A stretch of 64,000 nt of DNA, taken from Candidatus Multivoradales bacterium (GTDB lineage: Bacteria; Acidobacteriota; Thermoanaerobaculia; Multivoradales; JAHEKO01). Below are positions 16,521-38,546 of the stretch, piece by piece. The notes beneath the pieces are model-generated. The model searched no databases and was not told the DNA's origin. It saw nothing but the letters and a program-made list of their open reading frames with translations. Location of the stretch: NCBI GenBank assembly GCA_965223855.1, contig CBDCXM010000009.1, positions 336,142 through 400,141 on the forward strand. Direction: 5' to 3'. Each line of letters opens with the position of its first letter. Position 1 is the stretch's first letter. Position numbers and translations under genes: made by a program.

Positions 16521-16548
16521 CCGCCGGCCGATCGACAAGGAAGCCGCG

Positions 16549-19825: not shown

Positions 19826-21151
19826 CTAGGGGACGGTCACCGACCAGGCCGAGGTGTCGCCTGACTCGAAGCCGTCTTCGAAGATCGGCGGGAGTCTGAA
19901 CACCCAGGCGATGCCGTGGGGCTCGAACTGGATGTTGTTGGAGTTGCCGACGAGGAGCCGGGAACCGCTGAATGAGAGGGCCTCACCGAATGTGTCGAGG
20001 ATCTGGCCGACCGGCGCTCGGAAAGTACCTACCTCTACCCATTCACCGTCGATGTAGCGGTTGTCGTAGACGATCCCCTGCCTGATCTGAGCGCCGTTGT
20101 CGCTCTCGCCGCCTACGAGGGCGATGTTGCCCCTCAGGGCCACGGCAGTGCCGTAGTAGTTGCCGTTGTTGGCGGCGTCCGACGCCAGGAGCTGTTGTTC
20201 TTCGCTCCAAACACCTCCTGAGCGACGGAAGACGTAGGCGGCACCGGGGCCGGGACCGCTTGGCGAAGGGTGCTGTTGCGCGCCAGCGAGCAGCGCATCT
20301 GGCTCCAGGGAGACAGAGAAACCCAGCATGGTGGCAAGAGTCCCGTCAGAAGCGCCCAGCTTCTGCTGAAACTGCCAGTTGGAGCCGTCGAAGGTGTAGA
20401 CGAAGACCGCACCGGAGTTGAGACCTCCGGTGGTGTCGTTGCTGAAGTCGCCCACGACGAGGTCGTCCCCTCGCAGATCTACGGCCCAGCCGAAGCTGTG
20501 GCTACTGGACGGAGCCGAGTCGGTCAACTTCTGCCTCTCGATCCACTGATGGCCTATTCGCTCGAAGTAGTAGACAGCTCCAGGGGTGGCCGTGTCGGCC
20601 CCGGCCCGCATGGCTCCCACAGCCAGCCGGTCTCCCTCTAGTGCAAGAGCCCTCGCGAAGTGGTCCTGTTCGTCGCTGTCTGACCCTCGAATCTTGTCGA
20701 CCTCGATCCAGTTGTCACCTACGCCGCGAATGAAGTAGTAGAAACTCCCCTGGTTCAATTCGTCGTCGTCGAACGGTGCCCCGACGATGGCTACGCTCCC
20801 ATCGATGGCGACCGCAACTCCGAAACCGTCGCCCTCAGCGCCATCGGAAGCTGTAAGCATCGCGTCCTCAACCCAGGTTTCACCTTCGCGCTTGAAGATC
20901 CATGCGGCGCCCTGCTCTTCCTGTCCGCCGATGTCAGCTCCGTTGGCGCCGACGATGGCGTAGTCGCCATCGATATCGACTGCCGAACCGAACCTCCAGC
21001 CGCTCTGTTGCATGACACCTTGCAGCTGAGCCTCGGCCTCCCATTGGCCGCCGGAACCTTCGGAGGCTGCGGCCAGGCCTACAACGTTCGCGACCGGCAG
21101 GAGCAGTAGCGTGAGCGCCCGTCGCTTGGCTCTAGGGGCAAACGGTTCCAT
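19826..21151 (-). CDS. FG-GAP repeat (integrin-alpha-like beta-propeller) secreted protein
   Basis: Signal peptide. Repeated FG/GAP-like blocks (GDYAIVGA, AAWIF, GAVYYF). Lies in a region of lower GC. Confidence 0.55.
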   Translation of the reverse strand: MEPFAPRAKRRALTLLLLPVANVVGLAAASEGSGGQWEAEAQLQGVMQQSGWRFGSAVDIDGDYAIVGANGADIGGQEEQGAAWIFKREGETWVEDAMLTASDGAEGDGFGVAVAIDGSVAIVGAPFDDDELNQGSFYYFIRGVGDNWIEVDKIRGSDSDEQDHFARALALEGDRLAVGAMRAGADTATPGAVYYFERIGHQWIERQKLTDSAPSSSHSFGWAVDLRGDDLVVGDFSNDTTGGLNSGAVFVYTFDGSNWQFQQKLGASDGTLATMLGFSVSLEPDALLAGAQQHPSPSGPGPGAAYVFRRSGGVWSEEQQLLASDAANNGNYYGTAVALRGNIALVGGESDNGAQIRQGIVYDNRYIDGEWVEVGTFRAPVGQILDTFGEALSFSGSRLLVGNSNNIQFEPHGIAWVFRLPPIFEDGFESGDTSAWSVTVP

Positions 21152-22280
21152 CGTCGATGGTCAAGCGTACATCCCATCGGGTGAAGCGAGCCCGAATGTT
21201 GCCTTGGGAACTTGGCCAGTTCGTGAGCCTGAGGGTCCATGGGCCGTCCGCTACCGTGCCTACGAAGACATTGTCTAGCAGCACCAATGGCGTCAGCTCG
21301 TCCTGGTCGTAGGCAACTTGGAGCTCGTCAGCCGGCTCGAAGTCTTTCAGGAGAATCGACTGACCCTGAGGTCCTGTCAGGGCAACGGAGAATCTCGTAT
21401 CCGCCGGCACACTGAAGCCGCGAAGCAAATAGACATCAGCGTCTGAAACCGTGCCGCCGATCGGATCTGATGCGAACGTCAGTGTCGCCTCGGCCCACTC
21501 TCCGGGCTCGAGCACGCCCTCGTTCATCGAGGATGTCTCGATCTGCCTCAGATGGTCGAACTTCACGTTCTGTGTCCGCCTGAACGTAGGGAATCCTGAG
21601 TCGTCCGAGGCCACCTCGATCTGCGCCGTCCTCACGATGGGGCAGTCCTCGGTGTCGTCGAAGGTCATCGCGATATCGACCGGAGGCTCGGGCGCATCGA
21701 CCGGGGGCAGCGTGTGCGTTGAAGGCGAGGTCGCCGGGACGTTGTCGAAGAGAATCCATCCCGCACCGCCAGCCGAGAGGGTGACGTCCTGCGGCACGAT
21801 CCATCGGTTTCTCGGGTCGTAGGTGATCTGCGTTCCGGTGGGAAGGCCAAGGCCACCGTCTCCAGTCAGGTCTTTCGGTACAGAAAGTGTGAAGCCCTCT
21901 GTACCGACGAACACCCGATGGAGGATCGGTTCCCGAGTCTCGTAGGTGTAGTCAAAAAAAGCCAACGTTTCTTCGAAGACACCCGGACCCAGGCTGATGT
22001 TGTTGTTGGGCGCCACCTCGAGACTCACCTCCTGCCCCTCCCCTAGTGTGCCCGAAGTGGGCCCGCTCACCACATCGAAGAAGCTCGTGATCGGCTGGGG
22101 GTGAGACTTGACTTCCCATGGGAGCGGTGTGCCATCCGGAGTCCCGTCGAACGGCACGGCAACGTCGAAGGTCAGACCCGGGAAGTCGCTGGCGTCAGTA
22201 GGAGGGCCGTAGAACTCTGCTACGGGTCCGCTGAAGCTCTGATTCACCTGAATCCCGAGCGCAGGGATCGTTGTGTTCAT
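21132..22280 (-). CDS. hypothetical protein, possible proprotein-convertase P-domain-like C-terminus
   Basis: 382 aa with no obvious signal peptide. C-terminal GPWTLRLTNWPSSQGNIRARFTRWDVRLT resembles the P-domain consensus. 20-nt overlap with the downstream FG-GAP gene. Low GC. Confidence 0.4.
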   Translation of the reverse strand: MNTTIPALGIQVNQSFSGPVAEFYGPPTDASDFPGLTFDVAVPFDGTPDGTPLPWEVKSHPQPITSFFDVVSGPTSGTLGEGQEVSLEVAPNNNISLGPGVFEETLAFFDYTYETREPILHRVFVGTEGFTLSVPKDLTGDGGLGLPTGTQITYDPRNRWIVPQDVTLSAGGAGWILFDNVPATSPSTHTLPPVDAPEPPVDIAMTFDDTEDCPIVRTAQIEVASDDSGFPTFRRTQNVKFDHLRQIETSSMNEGVLEPGEWAEATLTFASDPIGGTVSDADVYLLRGFSVPADTRFSVALTGPQGQSILLKDFEPADELQVAYDQDELTPLVLLDNVFVGTVADGPWTLRLTNWPSSQGNIRARFTRWDVRLTIDDGTVCP

Positions 22281-22324: not shown

Positions 22325-23659
22325 CTATGGGTCGAACGGGGCCCAGGCGTCAGCTACCTGTCGGTAGCGGTCACTGAGCCAGTCGGCGATGGCGGCCCGC
22401 TCCAGCTTGCGCTGTCCACCTGCTCGCGCGGGGGATCCGGCGTGACCGCGCACGCGCCAGCTCTCGGCAACGTCGCCGTCGTAGGCCGTCTCCGGAGCCT
22501 TCGCAACCTCGCGGTAGGCGTCACGGAACGGCTCCCCCTTCGCCACCCGCTGGTAGACGGCATCGGTTGCCGCGCTCGCAGGTTCGATCGCCGAGCGGCA
22601 GCGCTCGCGATCGACCTCGAGCCCTTCGAGCACCGGTACGAAGGTCACCAGCAGGTCGCGCGCCAGGGTCATCCCTTCGAGGAACGGCGCCTTGGTGAGC
22701 TGCAGGTCGCGGTGGTAGCCGGCGCCGACGCCGCCGTAGATATCCCCGATCTCGCCGACCAACGAGCGCAACCGCGCCGCCGCGGCGCGGGCGATCTCGA
22801 GCGGGTCGGGGTTGCGTTTCTGCGGCATGATGCTCGAGCCGGTGGTGGTCGCGGCGCCGAGGCGCAGGAAGGCGTGCTCCTCGCCCGACCAGGCGATGAG
22901 GTCGCGGGCCAGTCGGCCGAGGTCGGTGGCGATCGCCGCGGCGACTCCGAGCACCAGCGCCTCGGTGCGGCCACGGTCGCTCTGGACGGCGACGGTGTTG
23001 ACCTGCACGCGGTCGAAGCCGAGCAGCTCGGCGACCCGCTCGCGGTCGAGCGGCAGGGCAACGCCGTAGCCGGAGGCGCTGCCGAGCGGCGAGCGGTTGA
23101 GGTGGCCCCAGGCGGTCTCGATCCATGGCTGGTGGTCGAGCAACGCGTCGACCCAAGAGTCGAAGTAGTGGCCGAGCGTCGTCGGCATCGCCTGCCGGGT
23201 GTGGGTGTAGCCGGGCATGCTGGTCTCGGCGTGCTCCTGCGCCAGCCCGGCCAACGCGCCGACGGCCTCGAGGAGGGCCTTGTCGAGCTCGAGCAGCGCC
23301 TCGCGCCCCCACAGCCGCAGCGCCGCGATCACCTGATCGTTGCGGCTGCGGCCGGTGTGGATCCGCTTGCCGGCGTCGCCGAGCCTGGCCGTCAGCCGGT
23401 TCTCGATCGCGGTGTGCCCGTCCTCCTCTTCTGAGGCGATCGTGAAGTCGTCGTCCGCGGCGATCGCCGCGAGCTCCCGGCACAGCGCCTCCGCCTCTTC
23501 GGCGGAGAGCACACCGATCTCGGCGAGCATCGTTGCGTGCGCCGCGCTCGCCAGAGCGTCGTGCGGCACCAGCAGGAGGTCGAGCTCCGGGTCGCGACCG
23601 ACGGTCAGTCGGGCGACGGCGGCCGACAGCGGCTCACCCTTGTCCCACAGCCGGCTCAC
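22325..23659 (-). CDS. argH: argininosuccinate lyase
   Basis: Fumarate-lyase signature GSSIMPQKRNPD. GTG start at 23659 overlaps the argG stop (GTGA). The Arg-rich N-terminal extension of ORF 22325..24808 is an artefact. Confidence 0.85.
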   Translation of the reverse strand: MSRLWDKGEPLSAAVARLTVGRDPELDLLLVPHDALASAAHATMLAEIGVLSAEEAEALCRELAAIAADDDFTIASEEEDGHTAIENRLTARLGDAGKRIHTGRSRNDQVIAALRLWGREALLELDKALLEAVGALAGLAQEHAETSMPGYTHTRQAMPTTLGHYFDSWVDALLDHQPWIETAWGHLNRSPLGSASGYGVALPLDRERVAELLGFDRVQVNTVAVQSDRGRTEALVLGVAAAIATDLGRLARDLIAWSGEEHAFLRLGAATTTGSSIMPQKRNPDPLEIARAAAARLRSLVGEIGDIYGGVGAGYHRDLQLTKAPFLEGMTLARDLLVTFVPVLEGLEVDRERCRSAIEPASAATDAVYQRVAKGEPFRDAYREVAKAPETAYDGDVAESWRVRGHAGSPARAGGQRKLERAAIADWLSDRYRQVADAWAPFDP

Positions 23660-24885
23660 GAGCCACTGTCGCCGAACTTGGTGATCACCCGGTGCGCCCG
23701 CAGGCGCAGCGAGTTGACGCGGATGAAGCCGCGCGCATCCTCGGCGTCGTAGCCCCCCTCGACGTCCATCGACGCGAGCGCCTGGTCGTAGAGCGAGCTC
23801 GGTGACGAGCGGCCGAGGATGGTGACCGAGCCCTTGTAGAGCCGCAGCCGCACCTCGCCGTCGATCAGCTTCTCCGACTGGTCGAAGGCGGCGCGGATGA
23901 AATCCATCTCGGGGCTGAACCAGAAGCCGTTGTAGATCAGTTCGGCGAACTTGGGTGCCAGCGAATCGCGGAGCCGCTGGACCTCTCGGTCCATGGCGAT
24001 CCCCTCGAGGTCGCGCAGCGCGTGGTGGAGGATCGTGCCGCCCGGGGTCTCGTAGACGCCGCGCGACTTGATGCCGATGAAGCGGTTCTCGACGATGTCG
24101 ATCCGGCCGATGCCATGGAGCCCGCCGAGTTCGTTGAGGCGGAGGAACAGCTCGAGCGGGTCGGAGATCCGACGGTAGCCGTCGTCGAGCTCGACCGGCC
24201 GCGCGTCGGCGAAGCGCAGCACGATCTCCTCCGGGTCGTCGGGGGCGTCGAGCGGCGAGCGGGTGAGCCGGAACATCTCTTCCGACGGCTCCTGCGCCGG
24301 GTCTTCGAGCATCCCCGCCTCGTAGCTGCAGTGCATCAGGTTCTCGTCGGTGCTGTAGGGCTTCGACACCGTCGCATCGACTTCGAGCCCCTGGGCGGCA
24401 GCGTACTCGAGCAGGTCCTGGCGCCCCTCGAAGCGCTCGAGGAACGCGCGGTCCTTCCACGGCGAGACGACGTCGAGGTTGGCGGCCAGCCCCGCGTAGG
24501 CGAGTTCGAAGCGCACCTGGTCGTTGCCCTTGCCCGTGGCGCCGTGGGCGACGGCGCTCGCCCCGGTCTCGCGCGCCACCGCGATCTGCTCGCGGGCGAT
24601 CAGCGGCCGCGCCAGGGCGGTGCCCAGCAGATAGCGGTTCTCGTAGATCGCGTTGCCCGCCACCGCCGGGAAGATGAAGTCGGTAACAAGCTCTTCGCGC
24701 AGGTCGCTCACGCGGACCTCGACCGCCCCCTGCTGCCTGGCGCGCTCGGCCACCGCCTCGAAGTCCTCCCGCTGGCCGACGTCGGCGACGAAGGCGACGA
24801 CGTCCCACCCCTCCTCCTGAAGGAAGCGCAGGATGCAGGCCGTGTCGAGCCCGCCGCTGTAGGCGAGAACAATGCGTCGTTTCAT
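23656..24885 (-). CDS. argG: argininosuccinate synthase
   Basis: AYSGGLDTS-type motif (LAYSGGLDTACIL) and full-length ArgG similarity. Confidence 0.9.
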   Translation of the reverse strand: MKRRIVLAYSGGLDTACILRFLQEEGWDVVAFVADVGQREDFEAVAERARQQGAVEVRVSDLREELVTDFIFPAVAGNAIYENRYLLGTALARPLIAREQIAVARETGASAVAHGATGKGNDQVRFELAYAGLAANLDVVSPWKDRAFLERFEGRQDLLEYAAAQGLEVDATVSKPYSTDENLMHCSYEAGMLEDPAQEPSEEMFRLTRSPLDAPDDPEEIVLRFADARPVELDDGYRRISDPLELFLRLNELGGLHGIGRIDIVENRFIGIKSRGVYETPGGTILHHALRDLEGIAMDREVQRLRDSLAPKFAELIYNGFWFSPEMDFIRAAFDQSEKLIDGEVRLRLYKGSVTILGRSSPSSLYDQALASMDVEGGYDAEDARGFIRVNSLRLRAHRVITKFGDSGS

Positions 24886-25003
24886 GGCGTCTCTCCGTCC
24901 GGAGGCGAGGCTACCGCCGTCTCAACTCCCGGCGCCAGTACCGCGGGTGGGGTTGTCGTCCCCGGGACCGGGGGTGCCCGCCCGCGAGGATCTATCGACC
25001 TGC

Positions 25004-26404
25004 TCAGTCCCCCCGGGTCTCGCGCTCCTGGAAGCGCTCGGCGAGCGAGCGCAGGAAACCGCTGACCCACGGCTTGATGGCGTCGAGCTCCTCGAGCAGC
25101 TGGTCGCGGCTGACCCGCTCGACGACCGTCTCTTCGAGCGTCACGACGCTCGCGGTGCGCGGCTCCGAGGTCATGATCGCCGTCTCGCCGAAGCACTCGC
25201 CCGGCCCGATGGTGCGGAGCGACACCTTCTCCCCGTCGATCTCCTTGAACACCTCGCACGAGCCGCTGGCGATGATGTAGGCGTGCTCGCCGGGGTCCCC
25301 CTCCCGCATCAGCAGATGCCCCGCCTCGAAGGTCTCGAGCGGCAGGCTGCCGCCGCGCATGAAGCCGACGATGTCCTGACGCAGCTCGACGACCGTCTGC
25401 TGCCTGTCCTCGGGTTTGCGCGCCATCGCTTTCTCGAGGATCCGCACCAGCTCGCGCGGTGCTCCGGCATCGTCCGGCAGCGGGGTGAAGTGGCGCTGGC
25501 GGGCCCGCAGGATCACCGTCTCGCTGGTGCGCCCCTCGTAGGGCGGCCGGCGGGCGACGAGGAAGTAGAGCATCGCGCCGACGGCGAAGATGTCCGCCCG
25601 GGCGTCCATCTCTCCCCCGGCCGCCTGCTCGGGCGACATGTAGCCCGGGGTACCGATGACCCTCCGCCCCCAGATCCGGGTGAACGTGCTCGACACCGGG
25701 TCGTCGATCTTCGCCAGCTCGCCGTCGGGGTCCGCCAGCCTCGCCAGCCCCCAGTCGACCAGGTAGACCTCGCCGAACTCCCCCACCATGACGTTCTCCG
25801 GCTTGACGTCGCGATGGACGACCCCTCGCTTGTGGGCGAAGGCGAGGGCGTTGCAGACCTTGACGACCACCTCCAGGAGGTCGAAGAGGGCGCCCCGCTC
25901 GATCGGCCCGGGCGGCAGCTCACGGACGAGCTCGGCGTAGGTCCGCCCCTCGAGGAGCTTCATCGTGAAGTGGAGCCGCCCGTCCTCGGTCCTTCCCAGA
26001 TCGTGGACCGGCACGATGTTGGGATGCTGCAACTGACCGGTGATCTGAGCCTCCCTCAGGAACGACTGGACCGCCTGGCGTTCGTCCTCCATCTCCGTCC
26101 GCAAGAGCTTCCGCGCCAGCCGGCGCCTCAGGGTGCGGTCGTGCAGCAGCTCGACGATCGCCATCCCGCCGCTGCCGATCTCCTCGCCCGTCTCGAAGCG
26201 CTCCTCGTCAGGCGGCAGGACGTTGGCCACCAGATCCGCCTTCGCCCGTTCGTCGAGCCGTTCCGGGGGGTCGTCGCGGGAACCGAGGAGACGCTTGAAC
26301 CAACCCTTCCGCGCACCGGAACCCTCCACGCGCGTCCCCTCGAGCACGGTCGCCGTACCGCCGTGTGTGCCCGATCCGGAACCGCTGGAGCGACCTTTCG
26401 TCAC
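25004..26404 (-). CDS. Ser/Thr protein kinase with C-terminal cyclic-nucleotide-binding (CAP-like) domain
   Basis: Kinase subdomains (GSGGMAIV, HRDVKPEN, DWG, GTPGYMSPE), then a cNMP-binding domain (FGETAIM...RTASV). GTG start. Confidence 0.75.
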   Translation of the reverse strand: MTKGRSSGSGSGTHGGTATVLEGTRVEGSGARKGWFKRLLGSRDDPPERLDERAKADLVANVLPPDEERFETGEEIGSGGMAIVELLHDRTLRRRLARKLLRTEMEDERQAVQSFLREAQITGQLQHPNIVPVHDLGRTEDGRLHFTMKLLEGRTYAELVRELPPGPIERGALFDLLEVVVKVCNALAFAHKRGVVHRDVKPENVMVGEFGEVYLVDWGLARLADPDGELAKIDDPVSSTFTRIWGRRVIGTPGYMSPEQAAGGEMDARADIFAVGAMLYFLVARRPPYEGRTSETVILRARQRHFTPLPDDAGAPRELVRILEKAMARKPEDRQQTVVELRQDIVGFMRGGSLPLETFEAGHLLMREGDPGEHAYIIASGSCEVFKEIDGEKVSLRTIGPGECFGETAIMTSEPRTASVVTLEETVVERVSRDQLLEELDAIKPWVSGFLRSLAERFQERETRGD

Positions 26405-26507
26405 CGGCGAATCGTATCAACGGCTTCGCCCCACGACTGTGGCAAACGAGGCTTCTCTCGCGACCTGCGCCAGGTCGTCGTCTCCCCGTCTCGTAACATG
26501 GCCGACA

Positions 26508-28685
26508 GTGAAGAAACGAGCCAAGGCCGGGGCTCCGAGCGCCCTGCGCGACTGGGCGCCGGTGGGCCTTTCGCTGGTGCTCCTCGTCGCCGCTATCGTC
26601 GCGACGGTCGCCGAGCCGACCGCGATGACGACCCTGCGTCACGCGGCGTTCGACGCCTACCAGCGCCTGCAGCCCCGCGAGTACCGGCCGGCCCCGGTGC
26701 GGGTGATCGACATCGACGAGGAGAGTCTCGACCGGCACGGCCAGTGGCCGTGGCCGCGGACGACGCTCGCCACGTTGATCGAACGGCTCGACGAAGCCGG
26801 AGCGCGCTCGATCGCCCTCGACGTCATGCTCGCCGAGCCGGACCGCACCTCGCCACAGCTCGCGCTCGAGAGTTGGGCCGCGGACCCGGCCGTCCGGGAC
26901 CTGGTGGCGCGCCTGCCCGATCACGACGAGGCTCTCGAGAAGAGGCTCGCCGCCTCGCCGGTAGTCACCGGCTTCATCCTCGATCAGGAGACCCAGGGAG
27001 AGACGCCGCTCGAGAAGGGGAGGATGGTGCTCGCCGGCGATCCGGCCGCCGCCTTCCTGCCGCCGTTTCGCGGTGCCGTCACCTCTCTGCGAGCGTTCGA
27101 GGCCGCGGCGGCGGGCAACGGTGCCCTCAACATGATCCCGAGCAACGACGGCATCGTCCGTCAGCTGCCCCTGTTGCTCGGCCACGGCGGAGCGGTGCGG
27201 CCCGGTCTGGCCGCCGAGGCTCTGCGGGTCGCCGAGGGCGCCGACAACTACGTCGTCAAGGCGTCGGGGGCGAGCGGCGAGGGGCGCTTCGGCGGCCGCA
27301 CCGGCATTGTCAACGTGCGGATCGGCGACCTCGAGCCGATCGTCACCGACGCGCGCGGCGCTGTCTGGCTCCACTACTCGGACCCGGTCCCCGAGCGCAC
27401 GCTCCCGGCCTGGAAGGTGCTGGCGGGCGACGTCCCGGAAGGCGCTCTCGAAGGGGGCATCCTCTTCCTCGGCACCTCCGCCGCGGGCCTCCACGACCTG
27501 CGCCTCGACCCACTCGGCCGGATCGCCCCGGGAGCAGAGGTGCACGCCCAGGGGATCGAGCAGATCCTGCAGGGGACCTATCTGACGAGGCCCGACTGGG
27601 CGCGGGCGGCCGAGATCCTCTTCATGGTGGCGATGTGGTTCGTGCTCGTCGCGCTGATCCTGCGCTTCGGCGCGCTGCCGGCGGCGGTGATCGGCATCGC
27701 GACGATCGCCGCCGCCTACCTCGGCTCGTGGTTCGCTTTCGATCGTCTGCGGCTGCTGCTCGATCCAACCTTTCCCTCGCTGTCGGCGCTGTCGATCTAC
27801 TTTGTCTGCTCGGTGGCGCAGCACTGGCGCGCGGAGCGCGATCGCACCTGGATCCGCGACGCCTTCTCGAGCTATATCTCGCCCAATCTCGTCCGGCACC
27901 TGATCGACAACCCCGGCGATCTCGCTCTCGGCGGCGAGCGACGCGAGTGCAGCTTCGTGATGACCGACCTCGAGTCGTTCACCACACTGGTCGAGAACCT
28001 CGAACCGACGGTCGCCGTCAGCCTGCTCAACGAGTACCTCGACGGCATCGTCGACATCGCGCTGGCGCGCGACGGCACCATCGACCGCATCGTCGGCGAC
28101 GCGGTAGCGGTGATGTTCTCGGCGCCGGCGGTGCAGCCCGACCACGCCGAACGCGCCGTCGCCTGCGCCCTCGAGATCGACGCGTTCGCCCGGCGCTTCA
28201 GCGCCGCCAGGGGCGAGCAGGGGGTCGAGGTCGGGCGGACGCGGATCGGCGTCAACACGGGCGTCGTCACCGTCGGCAACGTCGGCGGCGACCGGATCGT
28301 CGACTATCGTGCCCTCGGCGATCCGGTCAACACGGCCGCACGCCTCGAGACGGTCAACCGACACCTCGGTACCAACGTCTGCGTGAGCGCGGCGACCGTC
28401 GCCGCCTGCCCCGACTTCCACGGCCGCCCGATCGGACGCCTCCTGCTCAAGGGGAAATCCGAGGCGGTCGAGGCGTTCGAGCCGCTGTCGCGGGAAGAGG
28501 CGGCGGGGGCTTCGAACACGGCCTATCTGCGGGCGTTCGCCCTGATGGAGGAGGAGGCGGCGGAGGCCCCCGCCGCCTTCGACCGACTGCGGCAGCAACA
28601 CCCCGACGACCCCCTGGTCGCCCTCCACGCCGATCGCCTCGCCGCCGGCGAGACCGGCTCGACCATCGCCTTCTCCGAGAAGTAG
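26508..28685 (+). CDS. CHASE2 sensor-domain adenylate/guanylate cyclase
   Basis: GTG 26508 (alternative ATG about 110 nt downstream). N-terminal TM, periplasmic CHASE2-like domain, three TM helices, class III cyclase domain (FVMTDLESFT, RIGVNTGVVTVGNVG). The ORF-track start at 26133 is antisense to the kinase gene. Confidence 0.75.
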   Translation: MKKRAKAGAPSALRDWAPVGLSLVLLVAAIVATVAEPTAMTTLRHAAFDAYQRLQPREYRPAPVRVIDIDEESLDRHGQWPWPRTTLATLIERLDEAGARSIALDVMLAEPDRTSPQLALESWAADPAVRDLVARLPDHDEALEKRLAASPVVTGFILDQETQGETPLEKGRMVLAGDPAAAFLPPFRGAVTSLRAFEAAAAGNGALNMIPSNDGIVRQLPLLLGHGGAVRPGLAAEALRVAEGADNYVVKASGASGEGRFGGRTGIVNVRIGDLEPIVTDARGAVWLHYSDPVPERTLPAWKVLAGDVPEGALEGGILFLGTSAAGLHDLRLDPLGRIAPGAEVHAQGIEQILQGTYLTRPDWARAAEILFMVAMWFVLVALILRFGALPAAVIGIATIAAAYLGSWFAFDRLRLLLDPTFPSLSALSIYFVCSVAQHWRAERDRTWIRDAFSSYISPNLVRHLIDNPGDLALGGERRECSFVMTDLESFTTLVENLEPTVAVSLLNEYLDGIVDIALARDGTIDRIVGDAVAVMFSAPAVQPDHAERAVACALEIDAFARRFSAARGEQGVEVGRTRIGVNTGVVTVGNVGGDRIVDYRALGDPVNTAARLETVNRHLGTNVCVSAATVAACPDFHGRPIGRLLLKGKSEAVEAFEPLSREEAAGASNTAYLRAFALMEEEAAEAPAAFDRLRQQHPDDPLVALHADRLAAGETGSTIAFSEK

Positions 28686-28686
28686 C

Positions 28687-29403
28687 TCAGCGCTCGGAGG
28701 CGGCTTCGATCCGCCGGGCCTGCTCGAGCTGCGCCTCGATGTTGGCGAGCCAGGCACGGCCGTCGGCGGTGCGCGCCAGGAGTTGCATCGCCGGCTCGCA
28801 GTAGCGCTGGACGATCTTCGAGAAGAAGTGCGGGAAGTCCGCTTCGAGGTCCCGCGGGCTACCGTAGCCGAGGCGTTCATTGACGCCCGTTTCCTCGAAC
28901 TCGTAGTAGAGCGCCGGGTAGCGGCGGCGGGCGTGCGGCTCCGCCACCTGCCCGAGCAGATCGGCGGCGCGCGCGAGCCCCGGGAGGTCTTCGACCTCCT
29001 GGTAGGCGTCCTTTTCGGGCACCGGGAAACGGGTCCGATCGATGCAGGCGGTCATCCGCTCGACGTCGAGCAGCGGATGGCTCGCGAATCGCTCGCAGAC
29101 GAACTGGATGGCGCGATCGACGTGGTAAGGGCCGAGAGCGGCGTCGGTCGCCTCGAGGGGAAGCTCGACCACCGCGTCGCCGATCCCGGTCGCTCGGCGA
29201 CCCGGGTCGTCACCGCGGCACAGATCCGGCACGTAACCGATGTCGTGGCACAGGAGCGATGCGAGGACGTCCAGGCGATCGCAGGCCGGCACGGTTCCGC
29301 TCCGGTCGAGCCCTTCGAGGACCGCTTTGCCGACGAGGGTGACGAGCACCGTGTGGTGAGCGTTGTGGTAGAGCGCGTTGCACGAGGCCAGCCGCCCCAG
29401 CAC
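28687..29403 (-). CDS. HD-domain metal-dependent phosphohydrolase
   Basis: H...HD signature (YHNAHHT, LLCHDIGY). GTG 29403 as in the ORF track. The frame stays open upstream, so an alternative GTG at 29583 would add about 60 aa and overlap the OmpA-like gene end. Confidence 0.5.
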   Translation of the reverse strand: MLGRLASCNALYHNAHHTVLVTLVGKAVLEGLDRSGTVPACDRLDVLASLLCHDIGYVPDLCRGDDPGRRATGIGDAVVELPLEATDAALGPYHVDRAIQFVCERFASHPLLDVERMTACIDRTRFPVPEKDAYQEVEDLPGLARAADLLGQVAEPHARRRYPALYYEFEETGVNERLGYGSPRDLEADFPHFFSKIVQRYCEPAMQLLARTADGRAWLANIEAQLEQARRIEAASER

Positions 29404-29540
29404 CTCGACCGCGATCTCCCGCAGCGCGGCCGCATGCTCCCCCGCTTCGGGATCGGCCGCGAGAAAGCCCGCCTCCAGCCGCTCGGCGACGAGTTCGACG
29501 AGGGCGGCGGAAGGCTCGAACGATGGCGCCCCGCCGCCGA

Positions 29541-30215
29541 TCAGCGCACCCTGACGACGACCCTGCGATTCCGCGGTTCGCGCACCCCGTCTCCCGTCGG
29601 CACCGCCGGTTGCGATTCACCGAACGCCTCGATGGCGATCGCCGCTGCAGGGACACCGGCCTCGATCAGCCTGTCGCGCACCGCTTCGGCCCGTCGCCGC
29701 GACAGGCCGTCGTTGAGCGTCTCGGTCCCCGAAGTGTCGGTGTGACCGGCCACCCGGATCGCCGCAGTCGCACGCTGTCGGAGGTCTTCGAGCAGCTCGT
29801 CCATCGCCCCGTCCGCCCCGCCCGCCAGCCGGGTCGTGCCGAGCTCGAAGAGGACGGTCCAGTCCGTCGGAGCGGGAGGCTCGTGCTCGATCGCCGGAGA
29901 AAAGCCGAGCTCGAGCCCGTCGACCTCCACCGTGCGGATGTCACTCAGATCGTCGAAGGAGACCGCCTCGTAGGCGGAGTCGAGCAGCGCGCTCTCGCCG
30001 TCGCGCGTCACTTCGATCGCGCCGACAGTGCCGTCCTCGTCGGGCAGCAGGACGACGTACTGGCGCCATTCGGGCTCCTCCTCGACCGGCTCTTCGCCAC
30101 CAAGGAGCGGCAGCACCACCGAGTCAGGCGGCCACCAGTGGACCGGCACCCGCTGCGCGGCACAACCTGGAAGCAGGAGAGCTCCGATCAGCACGACCGC
30201 CCGCGCTCGGTTCAT
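29541..30215 (-). CDS. OmpA-family peptidoglycan-binding lipoprotein
   Basis: Lipobox LLLPGC. C-terminal OmpA_C-like domain (RVAGHTDTSGTETLNDGLSRRRAEAV, NRRVVVRV). Confidence 0.65.
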   Translation of the reverse strand: MNRARAVVLIGALLLPGCAAQRVPVHWWPPDSVVLPLLGGEEPVEEEPEWRQYVVLLPDEDGTVGAIEVTRDGESALLDSAYEAVSFDDLSDIRTVEVDGLELGFSPAIEHEPPAPTDWTVLFELGTTRLAGGADGAMDELLEDLRQRATAAIRVAGHTDTSGTETLNDGLSRRRAEAVRDRLIEAGVPAAAIAIEAFGESQPAVPTGDGVREPRNRRVVVRVR

Positions 30216-30658
30216 TCGGCTGCGCTCTCCAACCTCACGAGAAATCGCGTGCCTCGGATCCCGATCGTGCCGACCGGGGTCTCCACGTTCGCCGATTCGG
30301 GCGACAGCTTGGCGATCAGGCCGGAGACGTAGAGCAGCGTGCCGCGGGCGAGGCGGGAGAGGAACGCCCCCTCGCTCGCACCCGCCTCGTAGACGTACTC
30401 GTCGATCGTGAGACTGGTGTCGGGGCCGATCGACAGTCGGGAGTCGTCGATGAACAGCACCCCCAGGGCGCCGTCGGATCCGGTCTCCAGGGTGTCGTCC
30501 TGGAACACCGCGGCGCCCAGCTCGGCAGCGCTGCGCTCCCCGCCCGACACGATGAAGGCACTTCCACTCAACTCCTTGACGTGGCCGACGGGCTCGGACG
30601 CCGCGACGGCACCGGCCGAGAGGACCACGAGAACCAACCAGAGACGGCGATGCATCAC
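30212..30658 (-). CDS. FecR-domain secreted protein
   Basis: Signal peptide. FecR-like beta-sandwich sequence (SGSAFIVSGGERSAAELGAAVFQDDTLETGSDGALGVLFID). ATGA overlap with the OmpA-like gene. Confidence 0.55.
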   Translation of the reverse strand: MMHRRLWLVLVVLSAGAVAASEPVGHVKELSGSAFIVSGGERSAAELGAAVFQDDTLETGSDGALGVLFIDDSRLSIGPDTSLTIDEYVYEAGASEGAFLSRLARGTLLYVSGLIAKLSPESANVETPVGTIGIRGTRFLVRLESAAE

Positions 30659-30784
30659 CTCTCCCTTCCCTTCAGATGGCTGTTACACGACCCTCACAGA
30701 ATAGCACCGCCACCTCGCCGGGCAGCTGCCGACAGCGCCACACAGGTCGAAAAATCGCTATGACAGACTACCGACACCCTACCC

Positions 30785-32596
30785 ATGGCAGATATGGCAG
30801 GTCACACCACAGGCCGCGTCCTCCTCGCCATCGCGCTCGTCGCGGTGATGGCGCCCGCTGCCTGGTCCCAGGAGGAGACGGCGCCGGTCCGCACCGCCGA
30901 CGAGGAGCACGCGGCGCTCTTCCTCGAAGACCGCTTCCCGGCCGCCACGACCTGCGCCACCTGTCACCCCGACCACTACCGCGAGTGGTCGGTGTCGCCG
31001 CACGCCTACGCGCAGATGAGCCCCGTTTTCAACGCCATGCACGGGACGATTCTCAAGCTGACCAACGGCACGAACGGCGACTTCTGCATCCGCTGCCACA
31101 CGCCGGTGGGGATGAACCTCGGCGAGCCCGAGTTCATGAGCAACATGGACCGCCACCCGACCTCGCGGGAAGGGGTCACCTGCATCGTCTGCCACCGGGT
31201 CAATCGCGCCTACGGCAAGCTCAGCGGACGGCTGGCGATCGTCGAGGGCGACGTCTTCGACACCGTCTACGGACCGACCGGAGGCGAGGAGCTCGAGCGG
31301 GTGATCGACAGCTCCGAGTTTCGCGTCAACACCGAGCGGGGGCAGGCCGGGCGGGCGATCCACGCCGAGGCGGAGCCGTTCTTCCAACTCCGAGAGGCGG
31401 GCATCTGCGGAACCTGCCACGACGTCAACCTGGTGAACGGCTTCCGTCTCGAGGAGGCGTTCAGCGAGTTCAAGACGTCACCGGCCGCGCGCCGGGGGGT
31501 GACGTGCCAGGACTGCCACATGGGGACGGAGCCGGGAATCGCCTCCGGGTTCCGCCAGGGGCCGGCGGCAATGATCGGCACCCGGCCGACCGCCGAGCGC
31601 CGGCTCACGAATCACATGTTCATCGGGCCGGATTACTCGATCGTCCACCCGGGGATCTTCCCGCACAACACCCGGGCCTCCGAACTGGCGACGATCCGCG
31701 ACTGGCTCCAGTTCGACTGGGAAGCGGGCTGGGGCACCGACGCCTTCGAGCTCGAAGCGCCGGAGGACTACGAGTTCCCCGAGGTGTGGGCCTCCGCCGA
31801 CGACCGCTACGACGCCCGCGACATCCTCGACGCCAACCTCACGCTGCTCGACGAGGCCAACCAGGCGCGCCTCCAGCTGCTGCGCGCCGGTTACGTTCTC
31901 GGGGACACGAAGGTCGAGAAGAAGGGTCGCGGGCTCGCCTTCTCGATCGAAGTCCGCAACGCCACCGACGGTCACGGCGTGCCGACCGGCTTCGACGCCG
32001 AGAGGCTCGTCTGGCTCGAAGTGACGGTCGCGGACGCGGACGGCGAGGTCGTCTTCCGCTCCGGCGATCTCGACCCGAACGGCGACGTGCGCGACCTGCA
32101 CTCCCTCTACGTCCACAACGGCGAGCTGCCTCTCGACCGCTACCTCTTCAGCCTCCAGTCGAAGTTCCTGACCCGGATGGTGCGGGGCGGCGAGCGCGAG
32201 CAGGTGCTGGCGATCAACTACTCGCCCGACCCTCTGCCGTTCCTGCGACCCTCGGTCACCTCGACGATCCTCACCGGGAGACCTCGCGGCGCCCGCAAGC
32301 ACAAGCAGAACCTCGCTCCGCTCGGTCACCGCGTGGCGCGCTACGAGGTGCCGGCGGCCAAGCTCACCGGGCGCCCGCCGTACCGGGCCACGTTCCGGCT
32401 CAAGGCGGCGATGGTGCCGGTGAATCTGGTCCACGAAATCAAGGACGTCGGGTTCGACTACTTCATGAGCGCTCGCGACGTCGCCGAGCGAGTGGTGGCA
32501 GGCCATCTCGTCCTCTGGGAACGACAGCTCGCCCTCGAAGACGGTGCCGAACCGCCCCAAGCCGAAGAAGCCGTGGATGCCGCCGCGTCGCCCTAG
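30785..32596 (+). CDS. multihaem c-type cytochrome, 5 CxxCH sites, periplasmic
   Basis: Signal peptide. CATCH, CIRCH, CIVCH, CGTCH and CQDCH were counted directly in the translation. Confidence 0.75.
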   Translation: MADMAGHTTGRVLLAIALVAVMAPAAWSQEETAPVRTADEEHAALFLEDRFPAATTCATCHPDHYREWSVSPHAYAQMSPVFNAMHGTILKLTNGTNGDFCIRCHTPVGMNLGEPEFMSNMDRHPTSREGVTCIVCHRVNRAYGKLSGRLAIVEGDVFDTVYGPTGGEELERVIDSSEFRVNTERGQAGRAIHAEAEPFFQLREAGICGTCHDVNLVNGFRLEEAFSEFKTSPAARRGVTCQDCHMGTEPGIASGFRQGPAAMIGTRPTAERRLTNHMFIGPDYSIVHPGIFPHNTRASELATIRDWLQFDWEAGWGTDAFELEAPEDYEFPEVWASADDRYDARDILDANLTLLDEANQARLQLLRAGYVLGDTKVEKKGRGLAFSIEVRNATDGHGVPTGFDAERLVWLEVTVADADGEVVFRSGDLDPNGDVRDLHSLYVHNGELPLDRYLFSLQSKFLTRMVRGGEREQVLAINYSPDPLPFLRPSVTSTILTGRPRGARKHKQNLAPLGHRVARYEVPAAKLTGRPPYRATFRLKAAMVPVNLVHEIKDVGFDYFMSARDVAERVVAGHLVLWERQLALEDGAEPPQAEEAVDAAASP

Positions 32597-34022
32597 GGGC
32601 TTGCTGAGGAACCCTCGTGGGTCGCGCGCCGGCCTCATCTTCGCCGCCGCGACGCTGATGGCGACGGCGATCGGCGCCGCCGAGCCTCCCACCGAGGGAG
32701 ACGGCGAGAGCGCGAGCCGCCTCACCGACGAGGCGATCCCACTGCAGGTCGATGCGGTACCCGAGCGGCCGAAGCCGCCCCTCGAGCTCGGCGAACCGTT
32801 CCTCGGCACCGGCACCCTGCGCCCCGGCTTCCGACTGCCGACCGGCGCCGTGTGGCAGCCGGCGCTCGTCGCTTTCGGCTCCCTGAGGACCGCGGCCCAG
32901 AGCTTCGACTCCGGCGCCGGCAGGGTGAGCGAGCTCGTCGCCCGGTTGGACCTCTTCGCCAACCTTCAGCTCTCGGGAACGGAGCGCGTGGTCGTCGGCT
33001 TCCGGCCGCTCGACCGCGACGGTCGCTTCACCTCGTACGTCTTCTCGAGCGACGTCCCGGGGATCGAGGACGGGTCCCGCGACGAGTGGAACGGCGAGGT
33101 GACGAGCGTCTACTTCGAGGGAGACTTCGGCGAGATCTTCCCCAATCTCTCGAAGGACGACTTCAGCCGCACCGACGTAGGTTTCTCGGCCGGCCGTCAG
33201 CCGCTGATCTTCCAGGAAGGGATGCTGATCAACGACTCGATCGACGGCATCGGGTTGACCCGCAACACGCTTCAGCCGGGCAATCTGTCGAACTTCCGCG
33301 CCACGCTCTTCCTCGGCTTCGACGAGGTCGGCCGGCCCGACCGCATCGACGACGACGCGCGGCTCGTCGCGCTCCTGACCTCGACCGATACCAGGAGGTC
33401 GACCTGGGACGTCGATCTCGCGTGGGTGGAATCGCAGGTCGAGGGAGACCTCCTGGCCGGCGGGATCAGCGCGATTCAGAGACTCGGGCACTACAACACC
33501 GCGTTTCGACTGCTCGGCTCTTCAGCCCTCGACCGGGAAAGCGACCTCGTCTCCGACGGCTGGCTGCTGCTCAACGAGGTGTCGTGGACGCCGCACCACA
33601 GCCACGACCTCGTCTACGTCAACACCTTCGTCGCCGCCGACCGCTTCTCGTCCGCGGCGCGCGGGCCGAGCACCGGAGGCCCGCTCGGGCGCGCGGGCAT
33701 CAACTTCGCTGCCGTCGGGCTGGGCAACTACGGCGCGGCGCTGAGCTCGGAGGCCGAGGACGTCGCCGGCGCGGCGGTCGGCTACCAGCGCTTCTTCGAT
33801 CACACCCGCAAGCAGCTCCTCGTCGAGGCTGGCGCGCGTCTCGGCACCCGTTCCGGGAGCGCCGACTCCGCCGCCGTCACCGTGCGGTTTCAGACCGCGC
33901 TCAAGCGCCACTACGTGCTGGTGCTCGATGCCTTCGGCGGCTACCGCGACCCGGGACCCGCAGCACCCGGCGGCCGGCAGGAGCTACTCGGTGCGCGGGT
34001 CGAACTGGTGACGAAGTTCTGA
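32577..34022 (+). CDS. outer-membrane beta-barrel (porin-like) protein
   Basis: ATG 32577 (alternative GTG 32544). N-terminal signal peptide. Alternating amphipathic strands. C-terminal residue is Phe (TKF), as in bacterial OMPs. Overlaps the upstream cytochrome by 20 nt and the downstream one by ATGA. Confidence 0.55.
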   Translation: MPPRRPRGLLRNPRGSRAGLIFAAATLMATAIGAAEPPTEGDGESASRLTDEAIPLQVDAVPERPKPPLELGEPFLGTGTLRPGFRLPTGAVWQPALVAFGSLRTAAQSFDSGAGRVSELVARLDLFANLQLSGTERVVVGFRPLDRDGRFTSYVFSSDVPGIEDGSRDEWNGEVTSVYFEGDFGEIFPNLSKDDFSRTDVGFSAGRQPLIFQEGMLINDSIDGIGLTRNTLQPGNLSNFRATLFLGFDEVGRPDRIDDDARLVALLTSTDTRRSTWDVDLAWVESQVEGDLLAGGISAIQRLGHYNTAFRLLGSSALDRESDLVSDGWLLLNEVSWTPHHSHDLVYVNTFVAADRFSSAARGPSTGGPLGRAGINFAAVGLGNYGAALSSEAEDVAGAAVGYQRFFDHTRKQLLVEAGARLGTRSGSADSAAVTVRFQTALKRHYVLVLDAFGGYRDPGPAAPGGRQELLGARVELVTKF

Positions 34023-36061
34023 TGGCGGCCGCCCGCCTCCTCGGCCCGGCGGTGGCCGGTCTGCTCGCGATCGGCCCGGTGGCGGCGGCCGAGACCCCGG
34101 CGGCGCGCGACCCGGCGAAGATCGTCACCGCCGAGGCGTGCGGCGAGTGCCATCTCGAGGAGTTCGAGGTGTGGAAGACGACGCCTCACGCACTCGGCTT
34201 CAAGTCGCTCCACCGCAGCGCCGACGCTGAAGAGATCGCGCGCAAGATGGGTCATCGGCTCATCAAGCGCGACAGCCCCTGCCTCGAATGTCACTACACG
34301 ACGGCACTCGACGGCGAGCGCGAACGCGCGGTGTCGGGAGTGTCGTGCGAGTCGTGCCACGGCGCCGGCCGCGACTGGATCGAGGTACACAACGACTACG
34401 GCCCCGACGCCACCTTCGCCACCGAGACCGACGCCCACCGCGAGCAGCGAATCGCCGCCAGCCGAGCGGCCGGGATGCTGCGGCCGACCGACCTCTACGA
34501 GGTGGCCGCCAACTGCTTCGGCTGCCACACGGTGCCCAACGAGGAGCTCGTCAACGTCGGCGGCCACACGACGGGCAGCATCGGCTTCGAGCTGGTCGAG
34601 TGGTCGCAGGGCGAGATCCGGCATAACTTCGTCGCGGCGCAGCGGGGCGGGAGCAAGGAGAACGTCGAGCGCTCCGACGAGCGCAAGCGGCTGATGTACG
34701 TCGTCGGCCGATCGCTCGAGCTCGAGTACGCGCTGCGCGGACTCGCCAAAGCGACCGAGGACGGGGCCTACGCGAAGTCGATGATCCGCAAGGTTCGCAA
34801 CGCGGTTGCCGAGGTCGGCGACATCGCGGCGGTCACGACCCTCGCGCCGGTCAACACCATGACCGCCGCGGTGCGCGAAGCCCGGGTCAGCCAGGGGAAC
34901 GCAGCCGAGCTGCTGGCCGCCGCCGATCGGGTGAGCGCGGCGACCAGAGCGCTGCTCCGGGAGCCGGCCGGCGCGCAGGTGGCGGCCCTCGATCCTCTGA
35001 GACTCGGCCAGCCGCTCCCGGGGACGGATCAACTCGCCGAGGACGAGCGCGAGGGCCTCGAGGACCCCGTCGAGGGCGCGGCCGAGACCGTCCCGGCGGC
35101 CGTCGCCGCGGCGGCCGCACCCGGAGAGCCCGGCGCCACCACCGCCGGCGCCGGCAGCGGTCGGAGCGTGCCCGACTACGCTCGCAAGACCCGGCTGCGA
35201 CCGACCTCGCCGCACCGCACGATCGACGCCGGCGCGTGCAGCGGCTGCCACGAGGAGCAGAACGCCTGGTGGTTCGACGACCCTCACTACGCCGCCGCCG
35301 AGCCGTTTCACGAGGGCGATCCGAAGAACGCCCAGATCGCCCGGCTCTACGGGCTCGCGGCCGGCGAGGCGACCAGGGGAAACCAGCTGTGCATGGACTG
35401 TCACGGCACGGTCGTCACCGGCAAGGAGCGCCGCGAAGTGTGGGACGGGGTGAGCTGCCAGAGCTGCCACGGTGGCGCCGCCGACTACCTCGAGCCGCAC
35501 AAGGAAGGGGACGAGACGGCCGGAGATCAGCGCAGCGGCTACCTCGCCGCACTCGGTCTCGGCATGAAGGAGCTGCGTCGTCCCGAGGTGCGGGCGCGCA
35601 ACTGCGCGAGCTGCCACTACATCACCGACCCGCGTCTGATCTCCGCCGGGCACCCGACCGGCAGGGACTTCCGGATCGTCGAGCGGATGCCGCGGATTCG
35701 CCACTGGGAGCGGGCCGATCTCGACGCCTCCGCCCTCGAGAGCGCCTTCCGCGACGAGGTGGCACGGCGAGGAGCGATTCCCGAGGTTGTCCTCGCCTCG
35801 CTGCCGGCGGGAGAGTCGCCGCTCGCCGCCGCTGCGACGGCGACGCGGACCCGCCGCGCGGGAGGGGGCTCCCGCCCCGTCAGAGCCCTGCCGCCGCGAC
35901 AGCGACCGGTCGATCCGATCGCCATCCCGGACCCTGCGAGCGTCGGCCCGCTCGACCTCCCCCCCTTCGACCCTCCGGCGGACGACGCGCCGCTCGAGGA
36001 GGTCCTGGCGCTGATTCAGCAGCGACTCGCCCTCATCTACGAAAACGTTCAGGAGCCGTGA
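34022..36061 (+). CDS. multihaem c-type cytochrome, 8 CxxCH sites
   Basis: Signal peptide. CGECH, CLECH, CESCH, CFGCH, CSGCH, CMDCH, CQSCH and CASCH were counted directly. Confidence 0.75.
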   Translation: MAAARLLGPAVAGLLAIGPVAAAETPAARDPAKIVTAEACGECHLEEFEVWKTTPHALGFKSLHRSADAEEIARKMGHRLIKRDSPCLECHYTTALDGERERAVSGVSCESCHGAGRDWIEVHNDYGPDATFATETDAHREQRIAASRAAGMLRPTDLYEVAANCFGCHTVPNEELVNVGGHTTGSIGFELVEWSQGEIRHNFVAAQRGGSKENVERSDERKRLMYVVGRSLELEYALRGLAKATEDGAYAKSMIRKVRNAVAEVGDIAAVTTLAPVNTMTAAVREARVSQGNAAELLAAADRVSAATRALLREPAGAQVAALDPLRLGQPLPGTDQLAEDEREGLEDPVEGAAETVPAAVAAAAAPGEPGATTAGAGSGRSVPDYARKTRLRPTSPHRTIDAGACSGCHEEQNAWWFDDPHYAAAEPFHEGDPKNAQIARLYGLAAGEATRGNQLCMDCHGTVVTGKERREVWDGVSCQSCHGGAADYLEPHKEGDETAGDQRSGYLAALGLGMKELRRPEVRARNCASCHYITDPRLISAGHPTGRDFRIVERMPRIRHWERADLDASALESAFRDEVARRGAIPEVVLASLPAGESPLAAAATATRTRRAGGGSRPVRALPPRQRPVDPIAIPDPASVGPLDLPPFDPPADDAPLEEVLALIQQRLALIYENVQEP

Positions 36062-36062
36062 C

Positions 36063-37697: not shown

Positions 37698-37700
37698 GCC

Positions 37701-38531: not shown

Positions 38532-38546
38532 TGGCGGACTCACACG

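Follow-up and report, generated by a model that had tools for sequence, protein, structure and literature searches.

A CHASE2 nucleotidyl cyclase and a kinase with a cyclic-nucleotide-binding domain in a Candidatus Multivoradales genome as plausible parts of a five-gene module linking the cell envelope to protein phosphorylation

Control of Ser/Thr kinases by cyclic nucleoside monophosphates (cNMPs) is a hallmark of eukaryotes, and in bacteria cyclic AMP (cAMP) is known mainly through Crp-type transcription factors. The CHASE2 cyclases of Sinorhizobium meliloti answer a plant protein signal that is sensed via the outer-membrane protein NsrA (PMC13001267), one of their genes, cyaD1, adjoins SMc02177 (PMC5498481), and cyaK is located directly downstream of a FecR-domain gene according to the record coordinates. 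Clusters in Campylobacterota contain a CHASE2 cyclase together with a cAMP phosphodiesterase (PDE), a FecR protein and a TPR protein (PMC9239204). The locus described here lies in a stretch of 64,000 nt from the Candidatus Multivoradales contig CBDCXM010000009.1, below called the window, and contains genes for a small FecR-domain protein, an OmpA-family lipoprotein, a putative HD metalloprotein of the Npun_R2479 family, a CHASE2 cyclase, and a Ser/Thr kinase with a C-terminal cyclic-nucleotide-binding (CNB) domain. With a probability of about 0.6, positions 25004–30658 constitute a five-gene cyclic-nucleotide module connecting the cell envelope with protein phosphorylation. Domain content, intact active-site and ligand-site residues, conserved synteny and a statistical association are direct observations; they make a sensor-writer-eraser-reader module plausible, and the functional, protein-protein and protein-ligand couplings within it we infer.

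The order of the five genes is conserved in close relatives. Kinase relatives at 60–66% identity keep the order FecR, OmpA, Npun_R2479 (PF28239), converging CHASE2 cyclase and divergent kinase-CNB, and the five-gene arrangement is present in the loci L081/L082/L086 and L084/L085, with three metabolic genes between the cyclase and the kinase in L083. The divergent pair persists at this level of kinase identity while the surrounding genes change. A preliminary description of the DNA had taken the kinase and the cyclase for a self-contained pair, but the conserved unit also takes in the FecR, OmpA-lipoprotein and PDE-like HD genes at 28687–30658. When genome contigs were searched with the kinase sequence alone the hits were mostly to the generic DVKPENVM motif, and only L001 and L002 gave full-length matches. 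The closest named relative of the kinase, with 54% identity, is from Ca. Multivoradales (L001, contig CBDCYF010000005.1, 7902–13584), where the homologue adjoins a CNB-GGDEF gene and a cyclase-AAA_16 gene, the latter with Q/L at the specificity positions treated below; this neighbourhood hints at cross-talk from cNMP to cyclic di-GMP. A homologue in Sandaracinus has a giant Pkinase-AAA_16-GAF-cyclase gene 4 kb away.

The wider family of the cyclase shows the same kind of association with other partners. A metagenome scan with the cyclase-family alignment returned 80 loci, of which the 79 with a CHASE2 cyclase open reading frame (ORF) were counted, and the ORFs of these loci were searched with hidden Markov models developed from the window proteins in iterative rounds. 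A FecR ORF lies no more than 3 kb from the cyclase in 48/79 loci, an OmpA ORF in 44/79 and both in 38/79, and in the 31 well-covered loci, where the cyclase has at least 2.5 kb of flanking sequence to either side, the corresponding numbers are 23, 22 and 21; a background of 1.02 Mb of unrelated loci contained no FecR and three OmpA ORFs. The density of CNB ORFs per 10 kb is 0.66 within 3 kb of the cyclase, 0.135 farther out and 0.02 in unrelated loci, corresponding to an enrichment of about 5-fold over the farther flanks and about 30-fold over unrelated loci. The output domains of these CNB neighbours, by Pfam, are PilZ, HisKA/HATPase, metallo-beta-lactamase fold (MBL), patatin, SulP, Na/H exchanger and GGDEF, and a kinase is found as output in the clade of the window only. 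Interchangeable CNB effectors next to a conserved cyclase family are to be expected if the product of the cyclase is read by its neighbour, and they argue that this product is a 3',5'-cNMP. The proposed link between a producer and a reader of a second messenger is thus favoured by the conserved divergent pair and by the CNB enrichment, but the pairing with a kinase is limited to one clade.

By hydropathy the cyclase has a first transmembrane (TM) helix at about residues 12–43, then the CHASE2 domain, a TM cluster at about residues 364–411 and a cytoplasmic cyclase domain, and the position of CHASE2 between the N-terminal helix and the downstream cluster is that of a periplasmic sensor. Homologues of about 715 aa with at least 50% identity are found in several phyla. 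Residue counts were made on the 120 closest homologues (P0121–P0240) and on the metagenomic loci L086–L165. The HMMER alignment of the catalytic domain to Cya2 of Synechocystis (2W01) and CyaB of P. aeruginosa (3R5G) is free of gaps around the key motifs, and places the two metal-binding residues D487 and D531 on those of both enzymes. The Asp pair, whose loss would have spoken against a functional cyclase according to the preliminary description, is invariant in the 120 homologues together with the transition-state residues N608 and R612, which completes the set expected of a class III cyclase; K648 is usually conserved.

The positions that specify the purine are less easily read. R527 aligns with E488 of Cya2 and a Lys of CyaB, and R601 with a Gly of Cya2 and a Thr of CyaB, so that the pair follows neither the adenylate pattern of Lys with Asp, Thr or Ser (CyaB is K/T and S. 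meliloti CyaK is K/S) nor the guanylate pattern of Glu with Gly, Cys or Ser. Among the window cyclase and its 120 closest homologues 90 have R/R, 26 K/T, four K/R and one N/R, that is, the two positions covary. The K/T sequences, which are Defluviicoccus/Rhodospirillales-like, form one or two coherent sub-clusters inside a family that is mostly R/R, with a mean identity of 54% between R/R sequences and 51% between R/R and K/T sequences. By motif matching the metagenomic loci L135 and L147 apparently have A/A and L114 has S/R, and the five K/T metagenomic loci have an OmpA neighbour in 0/5 and a FecR neighbour in 2/5 cases. In Cya2 the position equivalent to R527 decides the base by itself, and with the exchange E488K the guanylate cyclase becomes an adenylate cyclase (PMC5995499); the basic residue at 527 therefore leans to ATP, and cAMP is our best guess from the sequence for the product. 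No assayed R/R cyclase and no Arg at the specificity positions were found in the literature searched, the coverage of which was incomplete. The choice between ATP and GTP, which had been expected to follow from the substrate-defining residues, is not settled by the non-canonical Arg/Arg pair.

The Pkinase and CNB architecture of the kinase is common to all of its 120 best database homologues (P0001–P0120), on which the counts for this family are based. The catalytic residues K99, E118, H197, D199, K201, N204, D217-W-G and E259 are invariant in these sequences, and comprise the catalytic Lys, the Glu of helix alphaC, the HxD-x4-N loop (H197-R-D199 to N204), a DFG-type magnesium loop and the APE motif (S-P-E259) of a Hanks-type kinase, with D-W-G instead of D-F-G throughout the family. 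R198 is a Cys in 92/120 homologues (H-C-D, non-RD), and the window kinase is among the 12 with H-R-D, and may differ from the others in how it depends on phosphorylation of the activation loop. Among solved kinases bacterial PknB comes nearest in sequence (E 1.5e-45) and also in fold, ahead of the AGC kinases. An AlphaFold2 model of the kinase-CNB protein has a predicted local distance difference test score (pLDDT) of 87.5 and a predicted template modelling score of 0.76, and in Foldseek its kinase domain is PknB-like, the solved structures aligning with no more than that domain. The phosphate-binding cassette of the CNB domain is canonical, F405-G-E-T-A followed by P-R416-T-A-S, and helices after the domain run to the C-terminus at residue 466. 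G406, R416 and A418 are invariant, E407 is found in 119/120 and T417 in 117/120 homologues, and the residues that should contact the nucleotide are consequently intact, as the kinase assignment of the preliminary description demanded. The best PDB matches of the CNB domain are apicomplexan PKG CNB domains, one segment having an identical EPRTASV, but R-T-A does not identify the ligand since it is also found in the CNB domains of bacterial channels (PMC2246266, Table 1). The kinase-CNB architecture is not new, as bacterial CNB domains fused to kinases were listed already in a survey of 2007 (PMC2246266) and all of the top 120 database matches have it; a characterised bacterial CNB-kinase was not found in the literature searched, with incomplete coverage.

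On the other side of the cyclase the FecR gene is the first gene of a FecR-OmpA-HD operon, with the ribosome-binding site GGAGAGG in front of its ATG at 30655 and a 4-bp overlap with the OmpA gene. The HD gene is convergent with the cyclase gene and 1 bp separates the two stop codons. The best NCBIfam matches of the OmpA protein are lipoproteins of the YiaD/PA1041/YfiB type, all of them below the cut-off. The HD family has the conserved residues Y-H53-N-x-x-H57, H93-D94, H134 and D188, there is a precomputed PF28239 match on a database protein identical to the HD protein and on its homologues, and a characterised member of the Npun_R2479 family was not found. An AlphaFold2 model made from 30 homologues (pLDDT 95.5) has the class I PDE catalytic fold with its H...HD...D metal site, and on the strength of this model the HD protein is a strong candidate for a cNMP phosphodiesterase and eraser of the messenger. 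The start of the HD gene is uncertain because the ATG of the homologues is replaced by TCG in the window, ATG-TTC-GAG-CC (MFEP...) there being TCG-TTC-GAG-CC (SFEP...) here. The public annotation spans 28687–29403 only (238 aa from GTG 29403) and drops about 40 conserved residues; a full-length protein is possible from an in-frame CTG at 29544, overlapping the ompA stop codon, or from ATC at 29541. A rare start codon, an error of sequencing or a real truncation of the N-terminus could explain the anomaly.

Spurious long ORFs are common in the window because its G+C content is about 68%, and real genes were therefore chosen by the G+C content of third codon positions (GC3) together with Pfam. 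The frames of the kinase and the cyclase have a GC3 of 0.92 and 0.89 respectively, showing that both are real genes, and their domains and divergent arrangement agree with the earlier calls. The overlapping ORFs 24872–28804(+) of 1310 aa and 26208–28880(-) of 890 aa are without Pfam matches and were dismissed as high-G+C artefacts. Mechanically the cyclase ORF extends over 26133–28685(+), but judged from the sequence the true start is almost certainly GTG 26508, since xTG AAG A(A/G)A is kept there in two relatives and the N-terminal TM helix follows directly. In an alignment of the spacer the kinase start GTG 26404 is conserved in the relatives L081 and L084, and with both starts conserved the intergenic region is exactly the one given earlier as roughly 100 bp. 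The database protein P0001, which is identical to the kinase, is annotated 19 codons shorter (447 aa from GTG 26347), and with that start the spacer would grow to 160 bp. The same alignment contains a conserved element, ATCGTATCAACGGC in the window and GCATATCAACG[GC]C in the relatives, about 10 nt before the kinase start codon, the rest of the spacer having diverged; binding of a regulator and initiation of translation are possible roles for it. No second intergenic copy of the element is present within the window, other matches falling inside genes, the short repeats of the spacer are chance-like, and a search of 24500–31000 against Rfam gave no match.

Table 1. Coordinates of the five-gene locus, its domains and key residues, and of other genes in the window
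Feature	Position	Strand	Remarks
Ser/Thr kinase gene with C-terminal cNMP-binding domain	25004..26404	-	466 aa; Pfam Pkinase + cNMP_binding
Hanks-type kinase domain	25400..26197	-	aa 70-335; Pfam Pkinase, E 6e-38
CNB domain of the kinase	25085..25336	-	aa 357-440; Pfam cNMP_binding, E 1.3e-23
Divergent intergenic region	26405..26507	none	103 bp
Conserved element of about 15 nt, ATCGTATCAACGGC	26410-26425		just upstream of kinase start; alignment with L081, L084
CHASE2 class III nucleotidyl cyclase gene	26508..28685	+	725 aa
CHASE2 periplasmic sensor domain	26589..27644	+	aa 28-379; Pfam PF05226, E 1.1e-52
Cyclase catalytic domain	27945..28463	+	aa 480-652; Pfam Guanylate_cyc, E 3e-16
Metal-binding Asp D487	27966-27968	+	aligns with Cya2 and CyaB; codon position checked
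Purine-specifying position R527	28086-28088	+	HMMER alignment; codon checked
Metal-binding Asp D531	28098-28100	+	aligns with Cya2 and CyaB; codon position checked
Purine-specifying position R601	28308-28310	+	HMMER alignment; codon checked
Putative Npun_R2479-family HD metalloprotein gene	28687..29523	-	class I PDE-like fold, predicted cytoplasmic
OmpA-family peptidoglycan-binding lipoprotein gene	29541..30215	-	224 aa; signal peptide, LLPGC lipobox; Pfam OmpA, E 5e-18
Small FecR-domain protein gene	30212..30658	-	148 aa; N-terminal signal peptide, predicted periplasmic; Pfam FecR, E 9e-10
argG	23656-24885	same as kinase	118 bp after kinase stop
argH-like lyase gene	22325-23650	same as kinase	downstream of kinase
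Three multihaem cytochrome c genes	30785-32596, about 34022-36061, 38547-40127		
Gene for two CNB domains fused to 4Fe-4S dicluster ferredoxin	36063-37697		
Two genes without Pfam match	32544-34022, 37701-38531		
Two tandem AcrB-type RND transporter genes	13230-19641		

In the proposed mechanism the secreted FecR-domain protein and the OmpA-like, peptidoglycan-anchored lipoprotein would act on the periplasmic CHASE2 domain, a step suggested by the gene association and by the NsrA/CyaK precedent in Sinorhizobium. The inner-membrane cyclase, as a dimer with complete catalytic machinery, would then make a 3',5'-cyclic nucleotide, for which cAMP is the best guess, residue 527 sharing its basic character with the Lys found there in adenylate cyclases. 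The nucleotide would bind to the C-terminal CNB domain of the PknB-like kinase and switch its activity, leading to phosphorylation of substrates, and the cytoplasmic Npun_R2479 HD protein would hydrolyse the nucleotide and reset the system.

Several observations weigh against this mechanism and against the module as such. The kinase-cyclase adjacency is confined to one clade, no cyclase lies within 8 kb of the kinase homologues P0009, P0010 and P0068 (62, 56 and 49% identity), a CNB neighbour is present in just 18/79 cyclase loci, the genes next to the kinase differ between relatives, and no candidate for a kinase substrate emerged. The spacer 26405–26507 gave no hit in a scan for σ70-like promoters, and no operator was identified in it. 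The HD protein scores 250 bits against the Npun_R2479 model NF045583 (E 2.5e-74), compared with an equivalog cut-off of 400, its annotated part (28687–29403) has no Pfam match at E ≤ 0.001, PDEase_I included, its gene lacks the start codon of the homologues, and the distant family members in Alkalinema, Entotheonella and Ca. Venteria have no cyclase or CNB neighbour. Finally, the purine-specifying residues of the cyclase match neither the cAMP nor the cGMP pattern. The genes might accordingly be neighbours without a dedicated partnership, the kinase reading a cell-wide cNMP pool fed by several cyclases and the adjacency being an accident of one lineage. Apart from the solitary kinase homologues, it fits this explanation that the cyclases near the kinase in Ca. 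Multivoradales and Sandaracinus are quite different, of AAA_16 or GAF types, and that a small diffusible messenger needs no co-located genes. We find it unlikely all the same, as the divergent pair is kept at 60–66% identity in changing surroundings and varied CNB genes are enriched beside orthologous cyclases, and where distant kinase homologues do lie close to a cyclase, this agrees with a general link between kinase and cyclase. Still less probable, and in our opinion very much so, is that one of the two proteins is degenerate, the cyclase being dead through its Arg/Arg pair or the ligand of the CNB domain not being a nucleotide. The substrate residues are non-canonical, and the CNB fold serves in some bacterial domains to bind haem or other ligands (PMC2246266), but in the cyclase the catalytic residues do not vary among 120 homologues sharing only about 54% identity, and the cassette of the kinase is canonical while those of non-nucleotide binders are not (PMC2246266).

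A different explanation accepts the module and changes its messenger. The Arg/Arg cyclase would make cyclic GMP (cGMP) or another 3',5'-cNMP, and the kinase would be a functional analogue of PKG rather than PKA. This is consistent with the alignment of R527 to the Glu of a guanylate cyclase and of R601 to its Gly, with the covariation of the two positions and the K/S of the characterised CyaK, with the finding that the position equivalent to R527 switches the specificity of Cya2 by itself (PMC5995499), and with the R-T-A of the kinase CNB domain and its PKG matches. On the other hand Arg is basic like the Lys of adenylate cyclases, and Cya2 with Lys in this position is an adenylate cyclase (PMC5995499); the K/R intermediates suggest that either basic residue is tolerated at 527, and R-T-A, occurring in bacterial channels (PMC2246266), is not diagnostic. 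A non-cAMP product is in our view possible but rather improbable for this locus, and equally tentative is the extension that Arg/Arg CHASE2 cyclases are a large specificity class whose messenger is cGMP or a non-purine 3',5'-cNMP. If true, the locus would be a complete bacterial equivalent of the eukaryotic cyclase-PKG-PDE axis that had evolved independently and was switched on from the envelope via FecR/OmpA. A cyclase beside a CNB protein also recalls the anti-phage system Pycsar, the effectors of which carry CNB domains. In PADLOC the PycC models match the cyclase weakly (54 bits) and models of the defence kinase PD-T4-6 match the kinase domain, but these matches reflect generic domain homology, and the same stretch of the cyclase scores 60 bits with Pfam Guanylate_cyc. 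Unlike a soluble cyclase of the PycC type, that of the window is membrane-bound, has a periplasmic CHASE2 domain and conserved envelope partners, and is widely conserved as an orthologue across phyla, in contrast to the patchy occurrence of an island gene; it is accompanied by a CNB kinase and not by a killing effector with TM or TIR domains, and the flanks are housekeeping or respiratory (argG/argH, cytochromes), so we rejected membership in Pycsar and give a Pycsar-like function hardly any credence. The five-gene envelope-to-kinase module, with cAMP as the first guess for its messenger, is the reading retained in the following.

The argG and argH-like neighbours of the kinase are not conserved in relatives. 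The region 30785–40127 beyond the FecR gene looks like a respiratory cluster, and the CNB-ferredoxin encoded in it is a second candidate cNMP reader in the window. According to the preliminary description a ferredoxin and cytochrome cluster lay about 2 kb away, which holds for the first cytochrome gene, starting at 30785 and 2.1 kb past the cyclase stop codon, but not for the ferredoxin gene at 7.4 kb. A functional tie between the module and this cluster was considered and dropped, since the syntenic relatives L081 and L084 do not have the cluster in their 8-kb flanks. The region 19826–22280 has a G+C content of 0.62 compared with about 0.68–0.70 around it. Its two genes, both on the minus strand, code for a protein with six FG-GAP repeats and a protein with a proprotein-convertase P-domain; they may be horizontally acquired and encode surface or secreted proteins.

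Each part of the module comes from a recognised domain family and the association of FecR with CHASE2 is already published. To our knowledge three features have not been described, namely that most members of a widespread family of CHASE2 cyclases carry Arg/Arg at the specificity positions, that Npun_R2479 proteins have a class I PDE fold and can be encoded beside a cyclase, and that a small FecR protein and an OmpA lipoprotein recur as a pair. An envelope sensor, a writer, an eraser and a kinase reader would here be contained within 5.7 kb, and all four can be tested with purified proteins. Arg/Arg cyclases make up about three quarters of the 120 closest homologues and are found in Acidobacteriota, Alphaproteobacteria and other phyla, and the Npun_R2479 HD proteins with a class I PDE fold are a second uncharacterised family of general interest. 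The trio of FecR, OmpA lipoprotein and CHASE2 cyclase suggests a general input of envelope signals to cyclases, extending the rhizobial NsrA/CyaK precedent.

A close parallel in layout is the S. meliloti pathway of CyaD1/CyaD2/CyaK, NsrA and Clr, with an inner-membrane CHASE2 cyclase beside a FecR-domain gene and a CNB protein as reader. The reader there is the Crp-type transcription factor Clr and here would be a kinase; the FecR-domain protein encoded by the gene next to cyaK has about 1,200 aa by the record coordinates, compared with 148 aa here, where it is paired with an OmpA lipoprotein; and the K/S CyaK is about 30% identical over the catalytic region to the R/R window cyclase. The Campylobacterota cluster follows the same logic of sensor, writer and eraser and likewise includes a FecR-domain envelope protein, but it has a TPR protein where the window has the OmpA lipoprotein, and it lacks a kinase reader. 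Another sensor-writer-eraser layout, with an MBL-type candidate eraser, is found on the Ensifer sp. PDNC004 plasmid (L167, NZ_CP070354.1, 756389–768179), where a K/S CHASE2 cyclase that is 40% identical to that of the window is flanked by FecR, TPR, a SulP transporter and an NHLP-bacteriocin export system, and an MBL-fold hydrolase gene overlaps its 3' end. The closest solved catalytic domain is that of Synechocystis Cya2 (PDB 2W01, 6FHT; E 6e-27), which has the same CHASE2-TM-cyclase architecture and identical metal and transition-state residues; Cya2 makes cGMP and has Glu/Gly at the specificity positions, in contrast to the Arg/Arg of the window cyclase.

For the envelope side YfiBNR (TpbB) of Pseudomonas and E. 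coli, with an OmpA-like lipoprotein in the outer membrane, a small protein in the periplasm and a nucleotide cyclase of the inner membrane that has its sensor in the periplasm, is an analogy only, sharing the three-tier logic. YfiB is among the best NCBIfam matches of the window OmpA protein, with 62 bits against a cut-off of 128, whereas YfiN, a di-guanylate cyclase of the GGDEF type, has a PAS-like domain in the periplasm and YfiR is not a FecR-domain protein. The HD protein, with about 280 aa compared with about 320 aa for the catalytic domains of class I PDEs, shows 9–17% identity to PDE1–11, RhoPDE and LmjPDEB1 and has no PDEase_I match. In coupling a canonical CNB domain to a Ser/Thr kinase the reader resembles the eukaryotic PKA and PKG, and its CNB domain has its best PDB matches in PKG and the regulatory subunit PKA-R. 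Unlike these it has the kinase domain first and a single CNB domain last, with no tandem pair, and is PknB-like and not AGC. The window kinase is thus not a member of the PKA/PKG family, and looks like an independent fusion that may work like one.

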